Source: a virus. From it: a stretch of DNA of 58,017 nt. Below the pieces are notes generated by a model that saw only the letters and a program-made list of their open reading frames with translations, did not search any database and was not told the origin of the DNA. The stretch lies in the IMG/VR virus record IMGVR_UViG_3300037089_000557; one strand, written 5' to 3'. Of the stretch, positions 2,596 through 2,757 are shown piece after piece. The translations under genes were made by a program, and so were the position numbers. The stretch's first letter is position 1. Each line of letters opens with the position of its first letter.

Positions 2596-2677
2596 GCGAG
2601 CATGTAGCAACGGATATGCTAATTGGTCTCATAAGCCAATGTCATTAGACCGAGTAAGTTCAATTCTTACGCTCGCA
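2596..2677 (+). tRNA. Atypical class-II-like tRNA: anticodon loop CTCATAA (CAU), long variable hairpin, irregular acceptor/T junction
   Basis: D stem TAGC/GCTA, anticodon stem TTGGT/GCCAA, variable hairpin GTC-ATTA-GAC, T arm GTAAG-TTCAATT-CTTAC, acceptor GCGAGC/GCTCGC of only 6 clean bp; CCA follows one reading of the 3' end. Confidence 0.4.
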
Positions 2678-2684
2678 TCCAAAT

Positions 2685-2757
2685 GATCTAGACCATTGAT
2701 ATGGGGCCTGCTCTGCAAAAGCATGAGTATAGGGTTTGATTCCCTACTAGATCTCCA
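2685..2757 (+). tRNA. Degenerate tRNA-Cys-like (GCA) gene or pseudo-tRNA with an aberrant D arm
   Basis: Acceptor GATCTAG/CTAGATC plus encoded CCA, T arm TAGGG-TTTGATT-CCCTA, anticodon loop CTGCAAA, but the D region is only 13 nt (CCAT-TGAT-ATGG). Confidence 0.4.

Follow-up and report, generated by a model that had tools for sequence, protein, structure and literature searches.

The viral DNA of IMG/VR record IMGVR_UViG_3300037089_000557 (58,017 nt; the whole stretch analyzed, hereafter termed the window) contains, directly adjoining a tRNA-Glu(CUC) gene, a tRNA gene with CAU anticodon (locus A; Table 1) that is probably the phage's own initiator (fMet-type) tRNA, furnished with an extra arm in the variable region. 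This assignment is based on the signature bases of its stems, on its likeness to the initiator tRNA encoded by metZ of Escherichia coli, and on the presence of a tRNA-Ile(UAU) already serving AUA. Locus A is best described as an initiator-type tRNA with a class-II-like arm; its body agrees with the anticodon, the arm being the sole foreign element. The window belongs to a ~45-gene tRNA island of a huge phage, since its syntenic relatives reside on contigs of up to 392–463 kb. These relatives (contigs with L numbers) were retrieved via the neighbouring NUDIX gene (58–72 % identity) and an HD-domain gene.

The order tRNA-Glu(CUC), CAU tRNA (79–86 nt), tRNA-Cys and tRNA-Leu(CAA) is shared by L006/L175, L008/L009/L093/L094, L011 and L012, and the Glu|CAU junction ...GTC-A-C|N-GCG... 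is present in L006, L008/L093, L011, L012 and L175. Five distinct variants, including that of the window, make up the locus A family. In a hand-made structural alignment of these variants, checked by script, 104 of 107 stem cells are paired, and compensatory double changes occur at 14 of the 23 pairs. A larger set of 13 sequences, in which the five variants were joined by E. coli metZ and by seven long-arm relatives located on other phage-like contigs, has 91.8 % of its cells paired and reaches a covariation score of 0.607, as compared to 0.172 after shuffling (0 of 500 shuffles attained the observed score) and at most 0.187 in slid controls. The anticodon loop CTCATAA is identical in 5/5 variants and in 13/13 aligned sequences. 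Pairing, compensatory changes and the invariant loop together exclude a pseudogene; judged from these alignments, locus A is a real, conserved and working tRNA gene.

ARAGORN reports locus A as an 82-nt tRNA-Met(cat) with the variable hairpin GTC-ATTA-GAC and an A7.C66 "mismatch", and its minimum-free-energy fold is a class-II-type cloverleaf (z = −3.3). Both results bear out the long variable hairpin that had been noticed in the original prediction, which was made from the sequence without database searches. The CAU-containing loop CTCATAA, likewise noticed there, proved to be invariant in the family. The irregular acceptor/T junction reported at the same time is also real, appearing as A7.C66 in ARAGORN and as a deletion in Rfam; it is probably accounted for by an initiator-type 1x72 mismatch, which had been overlooked. 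In a local scan with the tRNA model RF00005, locus A obtained 34.6 bits (gathering score 29) with the deletion at the acceptor/T junction, and its orthologs in L011 and L009 obtained 43.1 and 31.4 bits, respectively. It is missing from the list of the whole-window RF00005 scan at gathering threshold, and the whole-window E-value scan retained it only as a sub-threshold match to selenocysteine tRNA (tRNA-Sec; 28.8 versus 47 bits).

The position of the 5' end bears on the identity of locus A. In the ARAGORN model, 7:66 reads A.C or T.C in each of the five variants and is never paired, and a T stem of 5 bp is followed by only six acceptor pairs. With a start one base upstream (C2595 in the window), the acceptor/T branch is a normal 7/5, L006 and L011 become wholly canonical cloverleaves, and the encoded CCA is in register in three of the five variants. 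In each of the four relatives, ARAGORN itself places the 5' end at this upstream base, as does Rfam in L011, while both programs start the window copy at G2596. Given the start at 2595 in the window and its equivalents, the 1:72 positions of the five variants read CxA, UxU, UxU, U-A and U.G.

In this upstream-start numbering, 1:72 is unpaired in 11 of the 13 aligned sequences, outgroups included, and the pairs G2:C71, C3:G70 and G4:C69 as well as G30:C40 are invariant (13/13). A11:U24 is found in four of the five locus A variants. Since 17 of the 19 tRNAs called by ARAGORN in the window have Y11:R24, locus A (A:U) is one of two exceptions, the other being the CAU tRNA at 28438, which reads G:C at 11:24 by naive numbering, its D stem being shifted. 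A 1x72 mismatch, G2-C71, C3-G70, G4-C69 and R11:Y24 are the known determinants for the formylase, and the CAU anticodon suffices for methionyl-tRNA synthetase (PMC9976931). With respect to the anticodon stem, G30-C40 is the essential one of the three G:C pairs of initiators, and natural initiators include variants of the type au/GC/GC (PMC5389676). The corresponding triplets are GC/GC/ug in the window, au/GC/ug in L012, and au/GC/GC in L008, L006 and L011. Thus, the latter three correspond to one of the alpha-proteobacterial and mycoplasma initiator variants (au/GC/GC and GC/GC/gu; PMC5389676), with which the whole family shares the invariant middle pair G30:C40; in contrast to them, U31.G39 (Y:R) takes the place of G31.U39 in the window and in L012, and the genes are of phage origin and carry an extra arm.

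Alignment of the five variants with E. coli sequences taken from RefSeq yielded scores of 18.8–26.4 for metZ (initiator), but only 7.2–13.5 for metT (elongator). The E. coli initiator tRNA-fMet (metZ/W/V/Y) shares with locus A the CAU in a CUCAUAA loop, the pairs G2:C71, C3:G70, G4:C69, A11:U24 and G30:C40, and, provided that the window copy starts at C2595, an unpaired or weak 1:72, which would be C1xA72 in both; its T loop TTCAAAT recurs in L006 and L011. Locus A differs from it by a variable region of 12–14 nt where the initiator has 5 nt, by one additional base behind position 7, by U73 in place of A73, by possessing only two of the three G:C pairs (U31.G39 in the window), and by its fusion to tRNA-Glu with a single-base spacer.

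A second CAU family, represented by the tRNA at 28438..28513 of the window and by its counterparts in L178 and L177, aligns better to metT than to metZ and likely provides the elongator tRNA-Met. Its L177 ortholog is a canonical elongator (G1-C72, U11:A24) and stems from the same 392-kb genome that has the L008-type locus A. The copy at 28438 and that of L178 (7267..7342) have a G1.U72 pair, a D stem shifted by one base and a single linker nucleotide; the former is called by ARAGORN but not listed in the whole-window Rfam scans. An IMG/VR scan with a 162-aa open reading frame (ORF) near 28438 retrieved no relatives.

Two further genes of the window, encoding a homologue of initiation factor IF1 and a CCA-adding enzyme, suggest an investment of the phage in initiation and were counted in favour of an initiator function of locus A. 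The IF1 homologue is also annotated in the relatives L177 and L178. The CCA-adding enzyme is needed for tRNAs without encoded CCA, e.g., tRNA-Glu.

Several observations weigh against the initiator assignment. The hallmark of three G:C pairs is incomplete, the window having G29:C41, G30:C40 and U31.G39, and a third pair of the Y:R type is absent from the natural variants listed in PMC5389676. Position 73 is U in the window and C, A, C and C in the relatives, as compared to A73 in E. coli. An extra nucleotide is found between positions 7 and 8 in the window, L012 and L008, the latter two also requiring a bulged A in the T stem, and the variable region, a 5-nt loop in initiators, is enlarged to 12–14 nt (three variants) or 7 nt (two variants). 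The other CAU tRNA (28438) has a weak 1:72 pair (G.U) and G2 C3 G4 as well, and no formyltransferase was seen in the window. Moreover, the equivalent of G2596 is directly preceded by U in 4/5 relatives; U(−1)/G(+1) is the classic context for cleavage by RNase P and hence favours the 5' end chosen by ARAGORN.

Some of these observations would fit an elongator tRNA-Met that acquired an arm and starts at G2596, with G1-C72, a 6-bp acceptor stem plus A.C mismatch and a T stem of 4–5 bp. This is the model drawn by ARAGORN and Rfam for the window copy; it agrees with the usual RNase P context in 4/5 relatives and with the deviation of locus A from the three-G:C rule, and further elongator tRNAs of the phage do bear extra arms. 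We nevertheless regard it as unlikely, as it leaves 7:66 unpaired in 5/5 variants and forces L006 and L011, which are canonical from one base upstream, into non-canonical structures. In addition, an initiator is indicated by A11:U24, by GCG at positions 2–4 and by a likeness to metZ that exceeds the one to metT, and a separate elongator-type CAU tRNA exists at 28438. Even less probable is a tRNA of the Ile2 type, in which C34 would be converted to lysidine for reading AUA. The CAU anticodon within a CUCAUAA loop, as also present in E. coli ileX, would be compatible with this function, and ARAGORN cannot separate Met from Ile2. No such lysidine tRNA is needed, however, since AUA is served by a tRNA-Ile(UAU), located at 1414 in the window and next to tRNA-Ile(GAU) in every relative; the acceptor stem is initiator-like (G2 C3 G4 and a probable 1x72 mismatch), and the lysidine-forming TilS was not seen in the window.

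The original prediction had compared locus A to Leu/Ser/Tyr tRNAs and had also considered a reading with UCA in the loop, implying an opal-reading or Sec-like tRNA. A class-II-bodied tRNA (Leu, Ser or Tyr identity) or a Sec/opal tRNA recoding AUG or UGA could invoke the long variable hairpin and the sub-threshold tRNA-Sec match of 28.8 bits; besides, CAU tRNAs with apparent class-II bodies and full 7-bp acceptors occur in the phage-like contigs L249, L434, L430 and L449, and tRNA-Tyr was not found in ~170 kb of family sequence. All the same, this interpretation is hardly credible, and its Sec/opal form was rejected: the arm is missing in the orthologs L006 and L011 and has a stem of only 2–3 bp where present, the discriminator varies with no consistent A73 or G73, U33-C34-A35-U36 is invariant, the acceptor/T branch is 7/5 and not 8/5, and the score with RF01852 (28.8 bits) is far below 47. 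The arm of locus A, which we take to resemble that of E. coli tRNA-Tyr, does not retain this likeness in the relatives. Locus A does share a paired variable arm, which in size is near those of tRNA-Leu and tRNA-Tyr, with class II tRNAs (Leu, Ser, bacterial Tyr), from which it differs by its initiator-type anticodon, acceptor and D stem, by an arm that is dispensable in orthologs and by the inconsistent discriminator. Long arms combined with unexpected anticodons are known from allo-tRNAs and (8/4) phage tRNAs (Mukai et al., PMC5389517), some of which lie in phage tRNA clusters, and from nematode nev-tRNAs (PMC3333845). Those tRNAs have Ser or Leu identity and class-II or Sec-like bodies (8/4 and 9/3 branches) and cause recoding, whereas the body of locus A keeps the identity expected from the anticodon and a 7/5 branch.

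A role of locus A as stand-in for the missing tRNA-Tyr was considered and rejected, the arm being not conserved, the anticodon invariantly CAU and the body initiator-like. ARAGORN at relaxed settings detected no tRNA-Tyr in ~170 kb comprising the window, L001, L006, L008, L011, L012, L093, L175, L177 and L178; the tRNA island of this phage family provides for the remaining 19 amino acids and for an initiator.

The extra arm of 12–14 nt is real but lineage-specific, having been added to an initiator-type body. It reads GTC-ATTA-GAC in the window, CC-GGAA-GG in L012 and CC-GAAA-GG in L008/L093, while this position is taken up by a mere GGCTTAC (7 nt) in L006/L175 and L011. Similar arms are attached to other tRNAs of these phages, namely tRNA-Gly(UCC) of the window and of L177 (11771..11852), tRNA-Asn(GUU) of L008 (878..960) and tRNA-Ile(UAU) of L011 (1066..1159). 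Such inserted arms on class I tRNAs are often GNRA-capped, and the respective tRNAs keep their own identity bases. Its absence from L006 and L011, together with an armed tRNA-Gly(UCC) that retains its own bases, indicates that the arm is not an identity element for aminoacylation.

Initiator-type tRNAs with a long arm recur in many large phages. Among 1974 distinct phage tRNAs of the fetched IMG/VR loci, genes of at least 80 nt amount to 12 of 82 for Asn, 13 of 94 for Ile, 12 of 276 for Met and 7 of 115 for Thr. In sampled IMG/VR contigs, 16 of 269 distinct CAU tRNAs have a variable region of at least 9 nt, and at least 11 of these 16 possess an initiator-type acceptor stem. Cellular counterparts were sought in 185,579 cellular genomes with a narrow long-gap pattern (GGCTCATAACC, followed after 17–32 nt by GGTTCRAATCC). 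Only 56 matches were obtained, mostly introns (archaeal or group I) or assembly duplications; ~10–15 are true long-arm cases, mostly located in phage-like tRNA arrays on contigs of metagenome-assembled genomes. To our knowledge, no tRNAs other than those for Leu, Ser, Sec and, in bacteria, Tyr have long variable arms, and the searchable literature, which was not covered exhaustively, yielded no account of phage tRNAs of the initiator or Met type bearing them. The exact 21-mer of anticodon arm and variable arm of locus A had no match in IMG/VR.

Other phage-like contigs encode CAU tRNAs with a long arm that have a full 7-bp acceptor stem (G1-C72 or A1-U72) and a class-II-like D arm (L249, L434, L430/L461 and L449; Table 1). 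Here, genuine class-II bodies may have been combined with a Met anticodon, which would be a different, possibly recoding phenomenon.

As to its purpose, we tentatively suspect the arm to be a tag or shield by which phage tRNAs are told apart from those of the host, e.g., against tRNA-targeting nucleases or for phage factors; nucleases cleaving tRNA-fMet have been described (PMC10264068; PMC7824862). One may speculate further, although we consider this rather improbable, that huge phages operate a partly private initiation system with their own armed initiator, in which a discriminator other than A73 and one more base at the junction are often found as well, the arm serving as handle or shield and GNRA-capped arms on class I tRNAs (Gly, Asn, Ile, initiator Met) as a phage "self" mark. 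The arm could then let phage factors (e.g., the phage IF1) or the ribosome of the infected cell prefer the phage initiator, or could hide the latter from host nucleases attacking tRNA-fMet, such as VapC-type toxins.

Building on the directly observed gene order, conservation, covariation and signature bases of locus A, the following course of events may be envisaged. Locus A would be co-transcribed with tRNA-Glu(CUC) as a head-to-tail pair from the weak promoter-like site upstream of the latter. Cleavage by RNase P before C2595 would leave tRNA-Glu with ...A73-C74, the CCA end of which could be finished by the phage CCA-adding enzyme. Methionyl-tRNA synthetase would charge locus A through its CAU anticodon; the unpaired 1x72 (C1xA72) in combination with G2:C71, C3:G70, G4:C69 and A11:U24 would then lead to formylation and exclusion from elongation, and G30:C40 would license attachment to the ribosome's P site. 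Promoter-like sites in the region number 6, as compared to 3.3 expected, and terminator-like sites between 2300 and 3400 were not found.

The initiator tRNA is among the most conserved RNAs in biology. If locus A does work in initiation, then formylase, IF2, IF3 and the P site would all have to tolerate the extra arm, and phages would tune initiation and not elongation alone. Locus A could be cloned as a test object for initiator recognition and may offer an orthogonal initiator for synthetic biology. On the practical side, standard tRNA finders probably misplace the 5' end of locus A and overlook two Cys tRNAs in the window.

One of the latter is a compact tRNA-Cys(GCA)-like gene located shortly downstream of locus A (locus B), the other is the tRNA-Cys(GCA) at 3108. 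The original prediction had regarded locus B as a degenerate duplicate of the tRNA at 3108. Its Cys(GCA) type, shrunken D arm and encoded CCA were confirmed, but not its derivation: overall, locus B is no nearer to the tRNA-Cys at 3108 than to other tRNAs, and its 5' half matches instead the tRNA-Cys of L012/L093, with which GGGGCCTG(C)TCTGCAAAA is identical except for one inserted C. Nor does decay describe it well, since 19 of 20 stem pairs are intact (acceptor 7/7, T stem 5/5, D stem 3/3, anticodon stem 4/5) at ~50 % divergence from any relative, and it is by paired changes that the stems deviate from their counterparts in the family tRNA-Cys. The minimum-free-energy fold is a cloverleaf (z = −2.5). 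As in tRNA-Cys, a GCA anticodon (loop CTGCAAA), U73 and an encoded CCA are present, and locus B has in common with the family tRNA-Cys the rare A8 and the 5' strand of the anticodon arm. It departs from canonical tRNA-Cys by having just one linker base, a small D arm (3–4 bp stem, 4–6 nt loop), the lack of G19, the presence of U56 and a sub-threshold covariance-model score. With RF00005, which the original prediction had named as a check for both loci, locus A is above the gathering score of 29 (34.6 bits), whereas locus B is below it with 23.0 bits (E = 0.038 in a search of 0.9 kb with 4227 families, corresponding to roughly 1e-5 for the tRNA family alone); ARAGORN did not call locus B even at relaxed thresholds (-ps80).

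The tRNA-Cys at 3108, termed bona fide in the original prediction, deserves this name by orthology to the tRNA-Cys of the relatives (nhmmer, E = 1e-6), but by that alone, since neither ARAGORN nor Rfam (E <= 10) found it. Its D loop reads AACCGACCA (G18 A19) and its T loop TTTAACT (U56). The combination of U56 with G18-A19 is shared by locus B, the gene at 3108 and that of L011, and C56 goes along with G18-G19 in L012, L093, L006 and L008 (7/7 in agreement). This apparent compensatory swap of the D-loop/T-loop elbow pair from G19:C56 to A19:U56 in the Cys tRNAs is the likely reason why the finders miss the gene at 3108.

Taken together, locus B looks like an extra, lineage-specific compact tRNA-Cys(GCA) gene that is constrained rather than decaying. 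The retention of U73, GCA, CCA and paired stems suggests that it is in use or was so until recently, the chances of it acting as a Cys tRNA being about even. Points to the contrary are the score below the Rfam threshold, the lack of U8 and of a normal D loop, a C.U mismatch in the anticodon stem, and the want of any homologue for covariation, BLAST and nhmmer searches against 416 viral and metagenome loci having retrieved none. A considerable chance, if somewhat short of even, has to be granted to locus B being a non-functional relic or hitch-hiker, i.e., a drifting tRNA-Cys copy brought in via the homing-endonuclease hot spot (see below), or a non-decoding tRNA-like RNA. Its low score and missing ARAGORN call, single linker base, mini D arm and C27.U43 mismatch would fit such an origin, as would its location in a decayed ORF near an HNH gene and its redundancy with the orthologous second tRNA-Cys; moreover, it occurs in one lineage only, 100 % identical in five metagenomes. 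Against a relic, it has kept 19 of 20 stem pairs at ~50 % divergence along with U73, GCA and CCA, and the G18-A19/U56 elbow is that of two other family tRNA-Cys genes. The tRNA-Met at 28438, a conserved gene, and its counterpart in L178 likewise have a D stem shifted by one base.

In the relatives, an ORF of 61–70 aa is located between the CAU tRNA and tRNA-Cys. The window has merely a frameshifted C-terminal remnant of this ORF, with locus B lying in the stretch formerly taken by the 5' part. An origin of locus B from the 5' end of the decayed ORF was considered and dropped for want of a convincing alignment. An IMG/VR scan with an 88-aa ORF adjoining locus B retrieved no relatives.

Table 1 Coordinates of locus A, locus B and associated features (positions in the window unless a contig is given)
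Feature	Position	Strand	Remarks
Locus A, initiator-type tRNA(CAU) with extra arm	2595..2681 (proposed)	+	ARAGORN/Rfam: 2596..2677
Locus A, 5' part	C1 = 2595; G2..C7 = 2596..2601; extra A = 2602; U8 G9 = 2603..2604		
Locus A, arms	D arm 2605..2621; anticodon arm 2623..2639; T arm 2654..2670		
Locus A, 3' part	66-71 = 2671..2676; A72 = 2677; U73 = 2678; encoded CCA 2679..2681		
Locus A, anticodon CAT	2630..2632	+	within invariant loop CTCATAA (2628..2634)
Locus A, variable arm	2640..2653	+	T-GTC-ATTA-GAC-CGA, 14 nt, 3-bp stem
tRNA-Glu(CUC)	2522..2594	+	discriminator A2593 + C2594; 53.6 bits; directly adjoins locus A
Sigma-70-like promoter match	2490..2517	+	TTGATA-16-TAGAGT; upstream of tRNA-Glu; 9/12 matches; weak evidence
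Locus B, compact tRNA-Cys(GCA)-like gene	2685..2757	+	acceptor 2685..2691 / 2747..2753; A8 = 2692
Locus B, parts	D hairpin 2693..2704; GCA 2715..2717; T arm 2730..2746; U73 = 2754; CCA 2755..2757		
Remnant of small ORF	2765..2852	+	frameshifted C-terminus (...WYDIQCGDH*); ORF intact in relatives
Orthologous tRNA-Cys(GCA)	3108..3182	+	U73, CCA, A8; clean cloverleaf fold
Second CAU tRNA, likely elongator tRNA-Met	28438..28513	+	class I, 76 nt; G1.U72, A73, CCA, U30.G40
tRNA-Gly(UCC) with variable-arm hairpin	31479..31561	+	UCC-GAAA-GGA; 61.7 bits; keeps G1 C2 G3, U73
IF1 homologue (IF1/eIF-1A fold)	39688..39960	-	PF01176, 59.2 bits versus cut-off 30.2
CCA-adding enzyme	47680..49308	+	tRNA nucleotidyltransferase + HD domain
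Class-II-like CAU tRNA, L249	10932..11016	-	
Class-II-like CAU tRNA, L434	6399..6444 region		
Class-II-like CAU tRNA, L430/L461	1108..1150 region		
Class-II-like CAU tRNA, L449	2781..2822 region		

The window has a G+C content of 42 %, and its ORFs are read well with the standard genetic code. DNA identical to it (100 %) is present in five metagenomes; one of the respective contigs (L001) prolongs the tRNA island upstream by 16 more tRNAs. Samples containing this phage are SRR23247747, IMG 3300037088, ERZ28654467, SRR11568998 and SRR7151606. Megablast of positions 1–8000 against the INPHARED phages gave no match, and a scan of one metagenome with a NUDIX alignment was dominated by generic NUDIX genes and did not reveal a syntenic locus. 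ARAGORN identified 19 tRNA genes in the window, several further ones being sub-threshold. Among the tRNAs, an amber-suppressor-type tRNA(CUA) at 16071..16146 (+; Rfam 59.4 bits, encoded CCA) has the loop CCCTAAA with C33 in place of the near-universal U. A tRNA-Gly(GCC) at 31210..31280 (+) and a tRNA-Ser(UGA) at 34637..34720 (+) were detected by relaxed ARAGORN only; corresponding genes exist in relatives.

In addition to the IF1 homologue and the CCA-adding enzyme, the window encodes an HNH endonuclease, a NUDIX hydrolase, a vault-shoulder-domain protein and an intein-containing radical-SAM protein. The HNH homing endonuclease (1773..2480, −) adjoins the tRNA-Glu/CAU pair, and different HNH ORFs are inserted between the same tRNAs in relatives (e.g., L006, 7029..9598), which marks this array of tRNAs as a hot spot where homing endonucleases insert. 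The radical-SAM-like protein (23822..25693, +) is split by an intein with a LAGLIDADG homing-endonuclease domain. Also within the tRNA island lies an HD-domain protein (30052..30927, +; JGI label "poly(A) polymerase"), which is distinct from the full CCA-adding enzyme and very widespread on huge-phage contigs (700 matches at E <= 1e-10). A 913-aa protein (10555..13296, +) comprises Major Vault Protein shoulder and repeat domains as well as an SPFH-like region and is kept in the relatives L001, L003, L008 and L012.

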